The translations under genes were made by a program, and so were the position numbers. Below are positions 1 through 20,249 of a stretch of 37,845 nucleotides of DNA, piece after piece; the first letter of the stretch is position 1; each line of letters opens with the position of its first letter. Under the pieces are notes generated by a model. It searched no databases and had not been told where the DNA came from. It worked only from the letters and a program-made list of their open reading frames with translations. This DNA comes from a virus (taxonomy: Duplodnaviria; Heunggongvirae; Uroviricota; Caudoviricetes): IMG/VR virus record IMGVR_UViG_2579779052_000009; one strand, given 5' to 3'.

Positions 1-738
1 TCATTCACTCTCTTTCAAACCAGTTTTAACTGTTTGTGGTTTTGGGTAAGGCTGGACTTTGAATAGCTTTGTGTTAAGGCGTTTTCTGGCTCTCTTGTCC
101 AGAAACCGGATGTAACGAAACTGACGGAATTTATGAACACTGGCTCTGTCGATATTAGCCCGCAGATGTTCACCTCGCTGTCCTCCTCGTTTGATTGCAT
201 TCTTGCAAATCTCGTGATACCACTCGCCATCAAGTTCATAGAATGTTGTTTCATGACTGCCTACATAATCAAAATTGCTTGCCTGGTACACGACACCAAG
301 ACAGCCACAACGCTCATCTGCAAACGACTGAACCCACTGCACCTGCGGATAAAGTTGTCTGATTAGTTTGAGCGCGTAACTGATTGCCCTTGATTCGGAG
401 TTTCTCGGCATACAGTCATGCAGCCATAACCGGTTAAGCTCCATATATTCGCGGTTCTGCGTGCCAGTTACGACGCGTGCACCATTGTTTGGATTAAGGG
501 CATAACCCCATTGCATTACGCCAACCAGCTCCCGTTCTGAAAATATGCCCAGATGAAGGTAGGAATTATTTACGAAACGATGGCTGTAATGTTTATTGAC
601 GACGACCAGCCGGGCCAGCCAGCAACTTATTGTCTCAACCCGTAACTCACGGGAGCCATAACCGACGATATTGTCGTTATAGTGAATAAGTTCAGGCGTG
701 CTGATGATACGGGATGTAACTTGCTTTCTGTTCCCCAC
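1..738 (-). CDS. mom: DNA modification protein Mom-like (start uncertain)
   Basis: Last gene at the Mu right-end position, immediately downstream of and overlapping a Com-like zinc-finger ORF; track ORF 1..933 is an N-terminal over-extension through com; about 230 codons lie beyond the com stop, matching Mu Mom length. No in-frame ATG near the expected start, so 738 (GTG) is a guess. Confidence 0.55.
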
Positions 739-892
739 GACAGGATTTCCTTGTGTATGTGGGGTGCTCTGTGGCGCTCTGAGATGTGATTTGATTGAGG
801 GTTTTACAGCGCGGACATTTGACTTCCAGATAACTGAAGCTGGCTCGTGCCAGTAGCTTGTTACAATGTCGGCACCGTATGTTTCGATACAT
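692..892 (-). CDS. com: Com-like zinc-finger translational activator of mom
   Basis: Translation [14 protein letters not shown]...VKCPRCK...EHPT carries the CxxC...CxxC Com zinc-finger pattern recalled from Mu Com; overlaps the mom 5' end as in Mu. Start taken at the internal ATG (track ORF 692..937 starts at an upstream TTG). Confidence 0.65.
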
Positions 893-937
893 GGCCGCAT
901 AACCTCCTGCTTTGTTGTTGATATCTTTATCACTCAA

Positions 938-1148
938 TCGATCGACAAAAACGATCGATTTGATTTATTTAATTGATACAACAAATAACACGAAATGTCA
1001 TTAGCGAAAATTTATGAGTTTGATCACTAATTTTAAACGGTGCTGTAACGCATAAGTGCTGAATGATTGTACATTTGAATACCGCAAAGCAAACAAATCA
1101 ACTAATTTATAGAAGTCAATTGGTTAATTGCCAGCGTAAGAGGCTGCT
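938..1148. promoter_or_regulatory. Divergent AT-rich regulatory region upstream of com/mom with three GATC sites
   Basis: GATC at about 940, 953 and 1022, the first two inside near-palindromic TCGATCGA octamers; lies between com (-) and a divergent + ORF. Mu Pmom is known to be Dam/OxyR regulated through upstream GATC sites. Confidence 0.4.
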
Positions 1149-1442
1149 ATGGACAATCATGTAACGACGAGAAATCGAAAAATGATTGAAAATGCGGAAA
1201 TCTATAATGATTATTTTTCCGATTATTCAGATGCCTGCAAATACAGTTCGAGTGCGGGAGAGTTCATATGCTTCAACTTTTTTATTAAATCTTATGTTTT
1301 TCCTCCACAGCAAGAAGATGGAGGTGTGCCACCTCCTGAAATCACTTTGCACCGTATAGCCTCCGTCTCAATGATGGAGCAACAGGCTAATGAGCTGTAT
1401 AGCATTCTGGGAACGATTCTACAAAAGCGTGAATCGGACTAA
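1149..1442 (+). CDS. hypothetical protein (97 aa), divergent from com/mom
   Basis: ORF with AAGAGG Shine-Dalgarno about 5 nt upstream of ATG; AT-rich; no recognisable family. Confidence 0.4.
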   Translation: MDNHVTTRNRKMIENAEIYNDYFSDYSDACKYSSSAGEFICFNFFIKSYVFPPQQEDGGVPPPEITLHRIASVSMMEQQANELYSILGTILQKRESD

Positions 1443-1577
1443 TGATACCGGTTCATTTGCCTGCCCGGATGGGGAAGCAGGATTGACTGCTCCATAAGCA
1501 GCTATATTTCTGAATACGAAATACTATCCAGCGATTACATATGGCTGGATAGCGGCAAAGATGTTTTCATTAGTGTC

Positions 1578-1603
1578 AAACCGGCAGAGGACACCACCGG
1601 TTT
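1578..1603. terminator. weak hairpin between convergent genes
   Basis: AAACCGG / CCGGTTT 7-bp inverted repeat with 12-nt loop between the + 97-aa ORF and the - 84-aa ORF; U-tract poor. Confidence 0.25.
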
Positions 1604-1609
1604 GTATTG

Positions 1610-1864
1610 TTACATCATGGTACTGTCAGTTCCGGGCTGAGCCGGGTCTGGTTGCTCTGGCTGCGCGTCGGTTTTCGGCTCATTATCAGCATCACTGGCC
1701 GCAACTGCTGGCCCAATAAGTTTTGCCAGCACTTCATCAACGTAAGTGTCGATTTGTGCCTCAAAATCCTTGCGGACCTGCGCTTTCAGTAATTTATTTA
1801 CTTCACCGGAATACAGTGCCTGTTTTACCAGGACTTCAGTGACGGTGCCTTTAATCTCTGGCAT
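1610..1864 (-). CDS. hypothetical protein (84 aa) with acidic Pro-rich C-terminus
   Basis: Canonical AGGAGG Shine-Dalgarno 6 nt upstream of ATG at 1864; no family assignment. Confidence 0.55.
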   Translation of the reverse strand: MPEIKGTVTEVLVKQALYSGEVNKLLKAQVRKDFEAQIDTYVDEVLAKLIGPAVAASDADNEPKTDAQPEQPDPAQPGTDSTMM

Positions 1865-1899
1865 GTATATCCTCCTTATGTGGGAATACAGCCCTGCAA

Positions 1900-2082
1900 T
1901 CAGGGCTGGGTCGGGTCTTTTGGGAGCGGAGTTGCCTGCGCTGTTTTACTGAGCTTTTCAGCTGCTGCGTCATCAATTTTGCGGCGAACATAATTTCTGA
2001 TGGCCTTATAACCACCGCTCACCAGATATAACGCACTGACCACAGTGCAGAAATAAAGCAGCATCGTATGAACAAATGTCAT
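1900..2082 (-). CDS. small single-pass membrane protein (60 aa)
   Basis: N-terminal hydrophobic helix LLYFCTVVSALYLVSGGY followed by charged tail; AAGG Shine-Dalgarno upstream of ATG. Confidence 0.4.
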   Translation of the reverse strand: MTFVHTMLLYFCTVVSALYLVSGGYKAIRNYVRRKIDDAAAEKLSKTAQATPLPKDPTQP

Positions 2083-2197
2083 ATAACCTTACCTTTGATA
2101 TTGACTACAGAAACAGTTTTCAGCTAAAAAGTAACCGCGTACATAATGGTCTTCTTTGTCAGAGGTTGTAGCTTTCCTTAATGGGTTTGGAATATCA

Positions 2198-2240
2198 CCC
2201 GCCAGTCAACAAATGGCTCTTTGACCGGCGGGATTTTTTT
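2198..2240. terminator. GC-rich hairpin with T-tract just downstream of the esterase gene
   Basis: CCCGCCAGTCAA ... TTGACCGGCGGG (11/12 complementary) followed by ATTTTTTTAT on +; A-tract on the other side, so possibly bidirectional. Confidence 0.4.
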
Positions 2241-2247
2241 ATCCTGC

Positions 2248-4302
2248 TTACGCGTTATTCACTTCCACCACGATACTGTCAATCAGTACCGGGTAAGTCG
2301 CATTTTTAGTGATATCGGTCACGCGCAACTTGTCTGCCGTAAACGTGCCGACCGGAGACTGCGACAGCATGAATGGTGTCCCGTCCTTACCATCAATGAC
2401 CGGCGTCACCTCAATACTGTTGTTACCGGCAAAACGGAAGCCCAGCGTATGCCATTCGTTATTAAATGCGCCGAATGACCCCAGCTTCGTGTTCTGCGCC
2501 GTGTTTCCTTTGTGATACATCACGTTAAGGTCTGTGGCATCGCTCTGTACGTAGAACGATGCCAGCAGGTTATGACCGGCATTTCCTTCCAGAGTAACCC
2601 CTTGCGGCAGGGCAGAAACCGGCCAGTACAGCGCCAGTGCGTACTGATTAGCCGTAAGCGCGCCATCGAGTTTAAAACGACAACTGACAAGACCACCTTT
2701 ACCCAGCAGGTCCGCACCATTACCAGCATCATGCTCAAGGTACCAGGGGGCTCTTCCTGTTTCCTTGGTCAGTTTCATTGCCTTACCCCCGCTGGCTCCG
2801 GCATCATCCACGATTTGAGCCTTGCCACCTCCGGCAGCCCAACCCTGTGGTGTCAACCGTCCTTCAGACTCAGATGCCCGGTAAGCAAATAGCGTACTCA
2901 TCGTCGTGGTGTCTGCGGGTGGCGTGGACGGTTTTGATGGTGTATCAGGTGACGGCTTCTCATCCGGTGGTGTCACGGTCTGCCCGCGCATCAGTTCAGC
3001 CGTGCGCCCTGCATGGAGCATAATAGCTGAGGCCAGACGGTCTGAAATGACGCCCCTGCGTGCCCATGAGCTGAAATGGCTGTCACGCTGTGTCGAAACA
3101 AAACTGCCCTGGGTTCGGGATGCTGCACCGTAATACCCGACAGCCACAATATCCGGGTCTTCCGCCGGAGCATTCGTTGGCGTGCTCTGTCCATTCTCAT
3201 CCGTCAGGAACGGTACAAAGAAAATTTTCTGTGCTTCCTTGCCTTTGTAGCCACCGTATACTGCCTCATATTTATCGGTGCCAGCGTTTTTCCAGTAATA
3301 CGTGGTATCACCGCAAATCCACGGCACCGTGGTGGCATTTCCACTCACGCACTGCGCAGCAAGCGGAGCCAGGTCAGTTCTGAACTGCTGAACCATGGCC
3401 GTGAATAAACTATTATGCTGCTGGCTTCCTGAGGCAAGGTCTGCCTCTCCCTGCATCCAGACCACAGCCAGAAGTTTGTTTTTCGGGTTTTTCGCCAGCG
3501 CGACTTTGGTGCGGCTTACCAGGTCCTGATACAGAGGTTTACCGGCCCCCCAGCGTGAAGAATCAGCGGAAGCACCGCTGGCCTCACTGAATGAGCCGTC
3601 GGCTCCAGTGGTGAATGCTGACCCGCCACGACAACAGGGCACCAGAAGTATCCCCGCATTCTGTGGGATATAGGGAAGCAGTTTTTTGGCAATATGCAAC
3701 CCCTGACCGACAGTCCCGTACTGGCCTTTTGCCAGATCAGCTTTCGGGTGGTTTATCCCGCTCATATCCTGAACATCATGCAGGCAGTGGTCTGCCGGAA
3801 TGATGTCGTTGTATGTACACGACGTACCGTTGGGCGTTACCGTACTGCGGCGTGCCAGTTGCTTAATGCGTGGGTCCGGGCGGTCAAACGAATCCGGTAA
3901 CGGCAGCCCCTCGCCGTAGGCCATGCCATTTGACTGACCCGCGAGAATGACAACAAAGTAATATTCCGGCTCTGAACTGCTGCCATTCGTGCTACCGGAA
4001 GGCCCGGCGTTATCCGGTGCATTCCAGTCGGAGGGCGTGAGCGTTCCGGCCACGTCAGATGTGATTGGAATGATGCCAGTCACGCCTGAACTGGTGATTT
4101 CTGCACTGGGATTACCGGATACCGGCATTACCCATAATGGCTCTTTCGTGCTGAAGCGGATCACGCAGTCTGCGAAGGTGATCCCCCCTTTATTACCCGA
4201 AGGGCGGAAAGGGCTTTCAATAAATGCCACCGTGCCACCGGCAACCTTGACTGAAAACTCTCCGGGCATGGCGGAGAGCATTTTCCACTTGGAGTCTGAC
4301 AT
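2248..4302 (-). CDS. SASA/SGNH-type carbohydrate O-acetylesterase, multidomain (NanS-p-like)
   Basis: Central block YYFVVILAGQSNGMAYGEG resembles the GQSN catalytic-serine motif of sialate O-acetylesterase (SASA) domains; Ser/Gly- and Pro/Thr-rich linkers separate an N-terminal domain and a beta-rich C-terminal domain. Sits where the G segment and gin would be in Mu. Confidence 0.65.
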   Translation of the reverse strand: MSDSKWKMLSAMPGEFSVKVAGGTVAFIESPFRPSGNKGGITFADCVIRFSTKEPLWVMPVSGNPSAEITSSGVTGIIPITSDVAGTLTPSDWNAPDNAGPSGSTNGSSSEPEYYFVVILAGQSNGMAYGEGLPLPDSFDRPDPRIKQLARRSTVTPNGTSCTYNDIIPADHCLHDVQDMSGINHPKADLAKGQYGTVGQGLHIAKKLLPYIPQNAGILLVPCCRGGSAFTTGADGSFSEASGASADSSRWGAGKPLYQDLVSRTKVALAKNPKNKLLAVVWMQGEADLASGSQQHNSLFTAMVQQFRTDLAPLAAQCVSGNATTVPWICGDTTYYWKNAGTDKYEAVYGGYKGKEAQKIFFVPFLTDENGQSTPTNAPAEDPDIVAVGYYGAASRTQGSFVSTQRDSHFSSWARRGVISDRLASAIMLHAGRTAELMRGQTVTPPDEKPSPDTPSKPSTPPADTTTMSTLFAYRASESEGRLTPQGWAAGGGKAQIVDDAGASGGKAMKLTKETGRAPWYLEHDAGNGADLLGKGGLVSCRFKLDGALTANQYALALYWPVSALPQGVTLEGNAGHNLLASFYVQSDATDLNVMYHKGNTAQNTKLGSFGAFNNEWHTLGFRFAGNNSIEVTPVIDGKDGTPFMLSQSPVGTFTADKLRVTDITKNATYPVLIDSIVVEVNNA

Positions 4303-4606
4303 CGTCTTTTCTGCCTGTTTCTGAATTAAACAGAGTCAGAATAACAACCGCTGATAAATATGTGTTTTGCGGAAATTCAAAAAAAGCATCACGGTACTTT
4401 TTGTGACGGAGCCGGTTAGGCAGGAACATAACGACAAAGGATGGACAGGCCAATACGATAACCGCATATTACCGGCTTATAATTGATTTGACGATTCATG
4501 ACGCTGCGGTCAGCATCTGAAAATATGCGTTATTTCAGAAACCCCTTGCCTGTATATGGCGATATTATTATTCCTGTTTTTATCATTGATTTACATGGTG
4601 ATGTTT

Positions 4607-5128
4607 ATGCAACTGATTAATGTTAAACGATATTACCCGGAACAAAAACCCTTTGGTAATGATGTACAGTATTTTCAAAGTGAAGATGGTAAGGATTTCT
4701 ATGAGTCCCTGCCATTATTCACCAAAAAATATAAACTTTGCATAACCCCTGACAGCGGTGTTATCTGCTCAATATCACAGGATGCTTCGGCGCTGTATCC
4801 TGCGGGTTTTTCCGTTGTTGAGACAGACGAATTACCTGAAGGTACTGATATTTCAGGTAACTGGAAGTTTGATAATGGTGTCATCTCACAACTCCCGGTT
4901 AACTATACCAAAAAAGCGGAAGCACTGCGCCAGTCATATCTTAATCAGGCATATGAAAAGATTAATGACTGGAGAACTGAGTTACAGCTGGGCACGATTA
5001 GTGATGAAAACAGAGCTGCGCTTACACGATGGATGAAATACATCAGTCAGGTGAAAAAAATGGAACTACCAGCGATTAAAAACAAAGCTGAATTTGACGC
5101 CATTAAATGGCCGGAGAAGCCTGAATAA
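4607..5128 (+). CDS. tail fibre assembly chaperone (Tfa/U-like), opposite orientation to the tail fibre gene
   Basis: Tfa-like C-terminal region (RWMKYISQVKKMELP...WPEKPE); start moved to the internal ATG (MQLINVKRYYPEQ), because the track start adds a hydrophobic leader; convergent with the tail fibre gene. Confidence 0.55.
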   Translation: MQLINVKRYYPEQKPFGNDVQYFQSEDGKDFYESLPLFTKKYKLCITPDSGVICSISQDASALYPAGFSVVETDELPEGTDISGNWKFDNGVISQLPVNYTKKAEALRQSYLNQAYEKINDWRTELQLGTISDENRAALTRWMKYISQVKKMELPAIKNKAEFDAIKWPEKPE

Positions 5129-5131
5129 CAT

Positions 5132-5160
5132 AAAGGGTGCTTATCGCACCCTTTTCCTTT
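5132..5160. terminator. bidirectional intrinsic terminator between convergent tfa and tail fibre genes
   Basis: AAAGGGTGC ttatc GCACCCTTT perfect hairpin followed by TCCTTT; A-rich on the other side. Confidence 0.55.
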
Positions 5161-5162
5161 AA

Positions 5163-6074
5163 TCAGACGGATGAAACTGTGCGCCAGGCATTACCGATAT
5201 ATATCTGCACCGGACGGTAATAAACGCCTCCGATATTATCGGCTGAACTTTTCCCGGTATCCTGCACGTTAATGCCTGAAAGCATACAACCAGAAGGTGC
5301 ACCATAACTCCAGGACATTTCATTACCTCCGGGTGAATGGTAACTCTGGGCACCAAGCTGAACGTTGCTAACGTATTTGTTATCAGCAGTAGCTTCAGTC
5401 ATACCGGAGGTAATGTATATGTCCTGCGTCCCGTCAAAAGGAACGCCATTAATATTTCTTGGGGTGGAGAGTTTATTCGCGGCAACGGCGGTGCCGTCCG
5501 ATGGCAGAGCATTCGCCGCCTTATTCACCGTTTCCCGTAAACCGACGTTATCGATAAAAGCCCCTTTATCCGGAATGTCTGCGCCGTTCTGCTCCCTGCG
5601 CAGGTAACGGTTATCACCTTCGCTTTTGCTGTAAACATCCAGATTATTACGGGCGGTTCCCTTATTCTCCAGGTCGGCGAGATTCTGATCCTTCGCCAGG
5701 GCATTAACGTCACCGGGACCAAGACTGTTTTTTGTGGCAAGTGTCCCCAGACCAAGATAACCACGGGCCAGACGCTGGGCCTCCGCACCGGCATCAGCAA
5801 TTTCTTTCAGGTTATTTTTCCGGGAAAAGGCATTCGCAGCGATAATGGCTTTAATGGACAGCGTAAGCTGGTTTAACTGCGCCTTATCCGGCTGAATACT
5901 GGCTTCAGCCAGAATATTCAGCAGTTCGGCCTGGAGAATATTCAGCCAGTCCTGACCAATCCAGCTGATACCTTTTTGTCCGTCACCTTCGGTAAACCAG
6001 GTGGTGGTATTACTCTGCGCCGGTGCCAGCGCAGGCATATTCGCCACGCCGGAATTATTATCAACATGAAACAT
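5163..6074 (-). CDS. tail fibre protein (S-like)
   Basis: Position after the baseplate genes; Gly/Asn/Ala-rich sequence with a phage tail-fibre-like repeat region (DNRYLRREQNGADIPDKGAFIDNVGL). Confidence 0.6.
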   Translation of the reverse strand: MFHVDNNSGVANMPALAPAQSNTTTWFTEGDGQKGISWIGQDWLNILQAELLNILAEASIQPDKAQLNQLTLSIKAIIAANAFSRKNNLKEIADAGAEAQRLARGYLGLGTLATKNSLGPGDVNALAKDQNLADLENKGTARNNLDVYSKSEGDNRYLRREQNGADIPDKGAFIDNVGLRETVNKAANALPSDGTAVAANKLSTPRNINGVPFDGTQDIYITSGMTEATADNKYVSNVQLGAQSYHSPGGNEMSWSYGAPSGCMLSGINVQDTGKSSADNIGGVYYRPVQIYIGNAWRTVSSV

Positions 6075-6634
6075 TAAATAGTCTCCTCTTCATGGCTGTT
6101 TGCATAAACGTAAATAAACGTCTGCCATGCAGGCTTATAACGGTTCAGAATACATTCCAGCGCACCGCCTTCATAAATACGCAGCGGCGTGAGAATATCA
6201 TCCAGCACATTCATATTCCGGTAGCCGGTTTCACTGTTAATCGTGACAATACTGACCCACTGCGAATCCGGTGAGGGCTGAATGTCAATCTGATAACCAA
6301 ACTCCGCCGCAAACCGGATATAAAATTCACGGTTCAGCGAGGGCTTCATCCGGTATTTATTGCCGGCATAACGCTGTCGCTCCGTGAGGGTGGCTCCGGC
6401 CATATCACACTCGGGAAGCCCGAGATAACGCTCCCAGTCTTCCAGCAGCAGGCGCGACGTGTCAGGGAAACGCTCGGCAAGCAGCTGTTTACCCGTCCAG
6501 GATACACGCGCTGTCGAATGACTGAGGCCCAGACATAATGATGCCAGTACGGATGACGGACGCTTGTCCCATGCCAGCCCGTCAGGCAGTAACTGCAACA
6601 GGGCGCGCTGATGTGGGGTCAGGGTTACAGCCAT
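6074..6634 (-). CDS. tail/baseplate protein, Mu gp48-like
   Basis: Position between baseplate J and tail fibre; 186 aa; overlapping start/stop with neighbours. Confidence 0.55.
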   Translation of the reverse strand: MAVTLTPHQRALLQLLPDGLAWDKRPSSVLASLCLGLSHSTARVSWTGKQLLAERFPDTSRLLLEDWERYLGLPECDMAGATLTERQRYAGNKYRMKPSLNREFYIRFAAEFGYQIDIQPSPDSQWVSIVTINSETGYRNMNVLDDILTPLRIYEGGALECILNRYKPAWQTFIYVYANSHEEETI

Positions 6635-7707
6635 GTGATTTCTCCTACCGTCAGCAGCTCACTGTCTCCCGCCTGAACTGACGTCAGCGGACTGCGCACT
6701 TCAAAATCCTCCAGATTTTTCACCCCTGCCACCGCCCGCCAGAAAGACGACGGCAGAACCAGACCGCCGGGCCGGGATTCGTTGTATAACAGGTCGGTCA
6801 GCGCCTGTTTTACGGCCGCCTGATTCTCCGGTGTTTTCGGGATGATCCTGATGCTGAAGGGCACCGGCTTATTGGTCAGTTTAAACACGGTCACCGTCGG
6901 CCCCAGAGGCTGTCCGACAGGCTGGCCGGTCGCCGGATCATCATGACTGCGGATATAATCCGCCACCCGCTGAACATCACCGTCACCGGGGAAAATATCC
7001 GGGTTATTATCCTGAACAAACGTTACCCCCACGCTGCCCGCCTGCGGCCATTCCGGGCGGCACCATGCCCGCGTCACGCCCGGCACTTCACGCGCCCAGC
7101 GTTCAAAATCATACTGCGTGCCGCCGGACGGTGGATTCTGCACCCGGAAAACCAGACGGGAAAGCAGCTCCGGCACGGTTTCCACATCCGCACCACCGGT
7201 GATCCCCGTTCCGGTCACCGTGGCCGTCTGGTTGATCCCCGCCTGCGGTGTGATAAATGTCAGTTTTGTCCCTGCCGGGGCATTCCCCGCACGACCGGCA
7301 CTTTCGGCTTCCACACTGACATTCAGCGTACCGGCCTTACCGGTCAGTGAGGTGGTGATACGGTAAACCACGCCATCACTTCGCTGGAGAAGCACACCTT
7401 CCTTGATCCCCGCATCCGTGGTCAGCATCAGCTGAACCGGCCCGTCCCCCCGAGAGGCAGGCTTACGCATGACGCCCCAGAATGCACAGTGTTTCAGCAG
7501 TTCGGCTTCATCGGCTTCGGTCGGGATGATCTGACGCGCAATCCAGGCCAGATGCTCATGCTCCTGAGCAGATAACCCTGCCTGAGCGTAAGCAATGGCA
7601 TTCAGGGTGGTTTCATTCACACCCGGCTGCGAGCCGGGCAGGCGCTGGCTGATATCCTGCTGTGTCTGCGTGATTAACTGTGCCAGCGGTAAAGGCTGAT
7701 AAGGCAT
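6625..7707 (-). CDS. baseplate J-like protein (Mu gp47-like)
   Basis: 360 aa, position and length typical of baseplate J family in Mu-like tails. Confidence 0.7.
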   Translation of the reverse strand: MPYQPLPLAQLITQTQQDISQRLPGSQPGVNETTLNAIAYAQAGLSAQEHEHLAWIARQIIPTEADEAELLKHCAFWGVMRKPASRGDGPVQLMLTTDAGIKEGVLLQRSDGVVYRITTSLTGKAGTLNVSVEAESAGRAGNAPAGTKLTFITPQAGINQTATVTGTGITGGADVETVPELLSRLVFRVQNPPSGGTQYDFERWAREVPGVTRAWCRPEWPQAGSVGVTFVQDNNPDIFPGDGDVQRVADYIRSHDDPATGQPVGQPLGPTVTVFKLTNKPVPFSIRIIPKTPENQAAVKQALTDLLYNESRPGGLVLPSSFWRAVAGVKNLEDFEVRSPLTSVQAGDSELLTVGEITWL

Positions 7708-20162: not shown

Positions 20163-20249
20163 GGCGGTCAGTGTACGCTTAACTGGTAAAGTCGGTGCCT
20201 GCCTCCGGGTGGATCATGTATGCGGGTTCGACCCCCGCCACTGACCGTT
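20163..20249. other. structured element in the F-G intergenic gap
   Basis: GGTCAGTG at about 20166-20173 pairs with CACTGACC at about 20239-20246 and encloses a GCGGG-TTCGACC-CCCGC hairpin. Confidence 0.3.

Follow-up and report, generated by a model that had tools for sequence, protein, structure and literature searches.

The locus lies in a Mu-like transposable prophage of Escherichia coli, carried on a viral sequence of 37,845 nucleotides (IMGVR_UViG_2579779052_000009); this whole stretch is referred to here as the window. A tail fiber gene of the Mu S type and a gene for a tail fiber assembly chaperone, tfa, converge on a hairpin (Table 1). The chaperone matches Pfam Caudo_TAP (PF02413) at 74.1 bits (E 1.5e-20; cut-off 22.1), which places it above the curated threshold of the family that includes Mu U and lambda Tfa. 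It also matches phrog_136 'tail fiber assembly protein' (E 1.2e-54) and Mu U (PDB 5yvq_B, E 4e-16). These matches bear out the original prediction of a Tfa-like gene on the + strand, convergent with the fiber gene, and its coordinates are unchanged. Caudo_TAP genes are expected directly 3' of the fiber gene and cotranscribed with it; the window tfa instead faces its fiber gene, and tfa is co-directional with the fiber gene only in the opposite orientation found among relatives.

Over residues 1-198 the fiber is homologous to Mu S 1-191 (domain E 1.1e-43), and a weak match (domain E 0.0027) pairs its last 75 residues (228-302) with Mu S 434-503. The central ~200 residues of Mu S are without a counterpart. 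Fibers of the Mu S type resemble Mu S both in the N-terminal part near the baseplate and in the C-terminal tip, and both similarities were found. The hairpin between the two genes folds at -15.5 and -17 kcal/mol on the two strands (z -4.3 and -3.7). It had been foreseen as a terminator separating tfa from the fiber gene; its stem and tails agree with this, and a bidirectional intrinsic terminator is plausible. An Rfam scan of the window gave no family at gathering score and a chance-level sraA match near the hairpin.

Table 1. Features of the tfa-fiber region and adjoining tail genes (window coordinates; a period marks features given without a strand).
Feature	Position	Strand	Remarks
Invertase 3' end relic	4388..4455	-	68 nt, ~20 codons; internal stop; ...GYRIGLSILCRYVPA*PAPSQKVP*
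Promoter-like hexamers facing tfa	4442..4483	+	Candidate; 9/12 match
Deletion junction	4455..4456	.	~870 bp of relatives missing
S'v 3' end relic	4456..4520	+	65 nt; TITAYYR, then out of frame
S'v-tfa spacer	4521..4606	+	Conserved with L001; weak Shine-Dalgarno GGTGA before tfa ATG
tfa, tail fiber assembly chaperone	4607..5128	+	173 aa; Mu U homolog; longer ORF starts at 4556
Hairpin between two convergent stop codons	5132..5154	.	9-bp stem; U-rich tails on both strands
Tail fiber gene	5163..6074	-	303 aa; Mu-S-like; phrog_1833, E 1e-161
Sv, fixed variable C-terminal fiber part	5163..5544	-	Residues ~178-303; tip homologous to Mu S C-terminal domain; boundary is the crossover center
Fiber gene stretch equal to one arm of relatives' long inverted repeat	5399..5562	.	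Partner arm deleted here
gix-like crossover site, single survivor	5532..5557	+	TTCCCGTAAACC GA CGTTATCGATAA; inside fiber gene, overlaps codons ...NVGLRETV...
Sc, constant N-terminal fiber part	5545..6074	-	Residues 1-~177; homologous to Mu S residues 1-191
Mu Gp48	6074..6634	-	Profile search
Baseplate J	6625..7707	-	Profile search

The remainder of the window is in keeping with a Mu-like phage. It has Pfam matches to Mom, Com, Gp48, and baseplate J, and over 36.7 kb it shares 99.7% identity with a prophage of E. coli JE86-ST02 that is inserted in citF and whose annotation has a complete Mu-type gene set including Mu transposase, a Mor-family activator, and Gam. No recombinase is listed in the RefSeq annotation of that prophage. 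The annotation does list a 'tRNA-OTHER' (L008 22267..22346, window ~20167..20246, +) whose T-arm is tRNA-like and whose long stem resembles an acceptor stem; neither ARAGORN nor Rfam detects anything in the window. To the left of the 304-bp gap that precedes tfa (4303..4606) are a 684-aa esterase with SASA and DUF6645 domains, DUF1378, DUF826, a + strand ORF, and com-mom. The first ~110 residues of the esterase match no family. The esterase/DUF1378/DUF826 cassette (1610..4302, -) lies between the former position of the invertase gene and com-mom, and the same trio is typical of the NanS-p region of Stx and lambdoid prophages. NanS-p diversity is presented as the topic of PMC10462455. The 97-aa ORF (1149..1442, +), on the opposite strand between DUF826 and com, has no Pfam or PHROG match; relatives have it annotated with 86 aa, and in some of them it carries a frameshift or is cut short. 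Just upstream of com, a palindrome that has several GATC sites, AATCGATCGACAAAAACGATCGATT (936..960), is reminiscent of the Dam/OxyR-controlled mom promoter region of Mu.

The arrangement around tfa becomes intelligible when relatives are considered. A megablast search with 4200..6700 against 5,426 complete E. coli genomes returned 234 records, in many of which the match is broken by ~810-870 extra bases annotated as 'recombinase family protein' and 'phage tail protein'. The gene order in strains STEC299 (L001) and HH35 (L002) is esterase (-), recombinase (-), S'v (+), tfa (+), fiber (-), where S'v is a C-terminal fragment of a fiber and has no start codon. Resolvase and HTH_7 domains are present in the recombinase, which can be aligned with Mu Gin over residues 1-184 (E 2.5e-88; roughly 75% identity by hand count of the alignment); its gene is intact in L001, L002, L011, and L012. 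Inverted repeats of 86-172 nt in L001 and L002 connect the start of S'v with the middle of the fiber gene. Two 26-bp gix-like sites with the same central dinucleotide are located at the outer ends of the repeats: TTCCCGTAAACC GA GGTTTTCAGGAA (read on the strand that has the shared half-site first) and TTCCCGTAAACC GA CGTTATCGATAA. Both closely resemble gix of Mu, TTCCTGTAAACC GA GGTTTTGGATAA, and the bix sites in Table 3 of PMC3241671. An in silico inversion of L002 at the central dinucleotides yields an Sc-S'v fiber of 300 aa in frame, with a co-directional tfa behind it. The segment in these intact relatives is ~1.3 kb long (L002 5827..7169; L011 and L012 12678..14020) and carries one tfa for two homologous tips, both of which end ...YRPxQ...G.W.T...

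Complete genomes provide evidence that this segment does invert. When they were searched with both orientations, that of the window was found in 18 records at 98.6% identity or more, and the opposite one in four records at 99.8% or more, with one further record at 95% and one with 81% coverage. NCCP 13983 and FORC_029 share a prophage, its chromosomal insertion site, and an intact invertase gene, but have the segment in opposite orientations. Over 12 kb of flanking sequence the two are collinear at 99.87%, so that the difference is confined to the inverted 1.35 kb between the two sites; near-identical prophages that differ in this way at one site indicate inversion in the relatives. Frameshifted invertase genes are annotated in other relatives, in both orientations (89-3156 and DLI.5a). 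A contig labelled Vagococcus sp. (L018, NZ_JBQPOM010000054.1) also has an enterobacterial-type Gin/Pin-like invertase gene (69% identity), Tfa homologs, and a pix-like site; phage-type genes of this kind on a contig labelled as the Gram-positive Vagococcus may be assembly contamination.

Alignment with the intact loci shows what the window has lost. In blastn comparisons, window 4200..4455 aligns to L001 5001..5249 and L002 5001..5255, and window 4455..6700 to L001 6120..8370; the 870 bp of L001 5250..6119 are absent. The lost DNA comprised the bulk of the invertase gene together with the second gix-like site and the 5' portion of S'v. The 304-bp gap accordingly consists of the esterase-invertase spacer, a stump of the invertase gene, a stump of S'v, and the S'v-tfa spacer. 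The aligned parts of L001 and L002 include the last ~61-67 nt of their annotated recombinase genes, and the invertase stump (which reads ...IGLSILCRYVPA*) is interrupted by a stop. When the invertase of a relative was compared with the 37.8-kb window by tblastn, a 29-residue relic at 4392..4478 was the sole match (E 1.8e-4, 58.6% identity). The original prediction that the window has no serine recombinase ORF therefore stands, while the statement that it has no invertase needs the qualification that a decayed 3' stump of the gene is present. The S'v relic aligns to L001 6120..6191 with gaps of 4 and 2 nt; the intact L001 sequence ends ...TVTAYYRPIQYLINGSWRTAGST*. The Fis-dependent recombinational enhancer of Mu is located within the 5' portion of gin; the matching portion of the invertase gene, where such an enhancer would be expected, is deleted here.

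The ends joined at the junction share at most 1 nt, which indicates an illegitimate deletion. A site-specific deletion mediated by Gin was considered as the cause and rejected, because the end points have no gix-like sequence and no more than 1 nt of microhomology.

A switch of the Din/Gin type has a serine invertase gene (Resolvase and HTH_7 domains) beside the segment, two alternative C-terminal parts for a constant fiber N-terminus, and two inverted 26-bp sites with identical central dinucleotides. The window has no such invertase gene, an intact Sc-Sv and only a 65-nt frameshifted relic of S'v, and one site. A search for gix- and cix-like inverted repeats had been proposed; it recovered the gix-like site in the fiber gene. 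No second crossover site was found in the window with degenerate 26-bp and 14-bp patterns at up to three mismatches, and scans of 1..7000 and of the whole window gave no partner inverted repeat. The fiber gene stretch that forms one repeat arm in the relatives matches the opposite strand of L001 5979..5817 and L002 5986..5823 at 86-90%. All 14 loci that have the junction are in one orientation.

Two other accounts of the orientation of tfa were weighed against this evidence. Inversion could be carried out in trans, as the original prediction suggested, by a Gin/Pin-family invertase of another Mu-like or cryptic prophage of the host. Such cross-action is documented, since PinQ of Qin inverts the P segment of e14 (PMC12529663), and the proposed search of hosts for Gin/Pin/Cin invertases had a positive outcome: JE86-ST05 (NZ_AP022815.1) and CI5 (NZ_CP011018.1) each carry, besides a locked prophage, an invertase-positive Mu-like relative elsewhere on the chromosome. 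That invertase would have no second site to use here. Inversion in trans needs two inverted crossover sites in cis, whereas the window has exactly one and no partner repeat, the partner site having lain in the deleted 870 bp, and every locus with the junction has the same orientation. A locus with a single gix-like site and no partner in cis cannot invert, whatever invertase the host supplies. The trans-inversion account is thus very improbable; it is excluded for this locus and stands refuted on sequence grounds. Equally improbable is that tfa never belonged to an invertible segment, having always been a separate gene that faces the fiber gene and has a promoter of its own. The intact ORF, the terminator hairpin toward the fiber gene, and the upstream promoter-like hexamers would fit such a gene, but immediately upstream of tfa are remnants of both the invertase gene and an alternative tip, the gix-like site is still inside the fiber gene, and close relatives have a complete switch with tfa at the same place. 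The relics already refute this account.

We conclude, with a probability of about 0.93, that the orientation of tfa is a remnant of a Mu-type invertible host-range switch that was locked by a deletion of ~870 bp. This is the frozen remnant that the original prediction listed among its possibilities, and the relics on both sides of 4455/4456, together with the complete switch in relatives, support it. The ancestors had a 'mini-G' segment of ~1.3 kb in which Sc was fused across a gix-like site to Sv. Sv was followed by the hairpin, by tfa and S'v on the opposite strand, and by the second gix-like site, with the Gin-like invertase gene outside the segment. Inversion alternated between Sc-Sv, with tfa antisense, and Sc-S'v with tfa behind it in the same direction. 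A single illegitimate deletion of ~870 bp, directly visible in the alignments, then took away the second site along with the 5' portion of S'v and the bulk of the invertase gene; it fixed the Sc-Sv orientation, so that the locus is now locked, and left tfa facing the fiber gene. From this state the phage would make one fixed fiber, Sc-Sv, from the late tail operon, with transcription ending at the hairpin, and it would probably still be infectious. The chaperone gene is antisense to the late tail operon, both when locked and in the orientation that prevails among the intact relatives. Any use of tfa would therefore need + strand transcription of its own from 4303..4606, where the promoter-like hexamers at the junction are the sole candidates.

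The locked form is not confined to the window. The identical junction, with the same small gaps in the S'v relic, was found in 7 of the 5,426 complete E. coli genomes (JE86-ST02, JE86-ST05, S1-CAM-01-A, M1, M3, M18, and CI5), and it is also present in L003, L004, L005, and eight IMG/VR contigs. The gap sequence as query matches 72 genomes; most of these match only its left half, from the esterase to the 3' end of the invertase gene, as intact loci do, and about a tenth carry the deletion. Truncated matches in two more genomes reach beyond the junction position. In one of these, strain 600029 (L009 5227..5979; L021), the locus has decayed further and is cut by an IS1 insertion at window ~4525, ~70 nt right of the junction. 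Lambdoid lysis genes replace tfa and the tail genes in this strain.

Locked prophages occupy four or more different insertion sites, among them citF, bcsA, flgL, and a xanthine dehydrogenase gene, and their hosts came from humans and mice. For a phage that transposes, different insertion sites are most simply read as lysogenization after the deletion, which implies that the Sc-Sv fiber works. The locked phage most likely still spreads and has lysogenized new hosts since the deletion, although allele exchange between resident prophages, instead of infection, could also have placed the shared junction at different sites. JE86-ST05 has more than one locked copy. In principle, the lone gix-like site could recombine with sites in another prophage copy and thereby give large rearrangements.

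Whether tfa is expressed in the locked state was approached through its upstream region. The deletion gave rise to one promoter-like element across the junction, TGGACA-17-CATATT (4442..4470). In the mutated S'v relic, 8 nt further on, there is a perfect TATAAT (4478..4483), although its -35 is weak (ACGATA, 4455..4460). Every locked locus retains both elements; the intact relatives lack them, and sigma-70 scans of these relatives gave no + strand promoter-like site upstream of tfa. The number of sites of this quality in the gap is not above that expected by chance in comparison with shuffled sequences, and no alignment above shuffles was obtained between the tfa upstream region and eight candidate late or middle promoter regions of the phage. 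Among the 12 locked loci that include the gene itself, 11 have it as an intact ORF; the twelfth belongs to an assembly in which frameshifts are numerous. Its dN/dS between locked lineages is 0.10-0.15. This was rejected as evidence of function in the locked state, because dS between the same lineages is 0.2-0.4, compared with ~4-5% divergence of the adjacent relic; the tfa alleles were probably imported by recombination, and the signal of purifying selection is not creditable to the locked state. A cross-species survey of genome contigs, with the Tfa protein and then an alignment as query, returned two distant loci and nothing usable.

Mu U binds the tip of S and is needed for its folding. The two were crystallized together (PDB 5yvq), and it is plausible that the fiber here, whose tip is by homology of the Mu S type, needs a chaperone. 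Expression of tfa from its own + strand transcription in the 4303..4606 gap has a little under an even chance. That tfa is a silent passenger, the fiber folding without Tfa or with Tfa from another prophage, is a substantial possibility; the odds between expressed and silent tfa are roughly even. With respect to function only, the locked phage might instead be a dead end in which the fiber cannot fold without cotranscribed Tfa, adsorption is defective, and tfa is becoming a pseudogene. The homology of the fiber tip to the Mu S C-terminal domain and of Tfa to Mu U (PDB 5yvq) would fit this, as would the lack of a convincing tfa promoter. The same junction at four or more insertion sites, in human and mouse hosts and eight viral contigs, speaks against it, as do the intact tfa in 11 of 12 loci and the fact that the tfa-antisense orientation is also the commoner one in invertase-positive relatives (18 versus 4-6 records). 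A dead end is accordingly quite unlikely. A bolder proposal, itself rather doubtful, is that the deletion created + strand promoter elements by joining the invertase and S'v stumps, giving tfa its own transcription so that the fixed fiber keeps its chaperone; more broadly, the mini-G family, with one Tfa for two tips, would have orientation-independent tfa expression. If the junction did make a promoter, a two-state host-range switch would have become a fixed fiber that retains its chaperone.

Locking by deletion accounts for the odd gene orientation without anything new, as an ordinary kind of prophage decay. It illustrates a route from a host-range switch to a fixed receptor specificity, by deletion here and by frameshifted invertase genes in 89-3156 and DLI.5a. 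For annotation, the fiber and chaperone genes of this locus should not be read as an active phase-variable locus. The mildly unusual aspects are the ancestral 'mini-G' design with one chaperone gene and the assembly of a Mu-S-type fiber with the only chaperone gene antisense.

The locus can be compared with several known inversion systems. It shares with the G segment of Mu (Gin; S, U, U', S') a fiber N-terminus like that of S and a chaperone like U. Its crossover site is at the same place in the fiber gene as gix and equals it at 21 of 26 positions, including the central GA. The invertase of the relatives is close to Gin and is encoded just outside the segment, with com and mom further on, as in Mu. 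The differences are in size and content. The Mu G segment is 3 kb with two chaperone genes, whereas the ancestral segment here was ~1.3 kb with one tfa, and the S fiber has 504 aa compared with ~300 aa. Mu lacks the esterase/DUF1378/DUF826 cassette between the position of the invertase gene and com-mom. The G segment of Mu inverts; in the window, without an invertase, a second site, or S'v, nothing inverts. The e14 P/Pin, P1 C/Cin, p15B Min, and Shigella B/PinB systems follow the same logic, in which a serine invertase and 26-bp sites swap fiber C-termini, and bixL resembles the right half-site of the crossover site in the window (PMC3241671). Cross-acting invertases are known among these Din-family switches (PMC12529663). 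The e14 and other Din switches are on different phage backbones, and the window is a single-site deletion derivative. Shigella phage SfMu is also Mu-like with a possibly locked G segment; its authors suggested that inversion of the segment may be lowered or abolished by a 1-bp difference in one of the inverted repeats (PMC4406740). In their classical descriptions, the segments of Mu and SfMu have two chaperone genes (PMC4406740). SfMu keeps gin, both repeats, and all four S/U/U'/S' genes, whereas the locking described here is a physical deletion.
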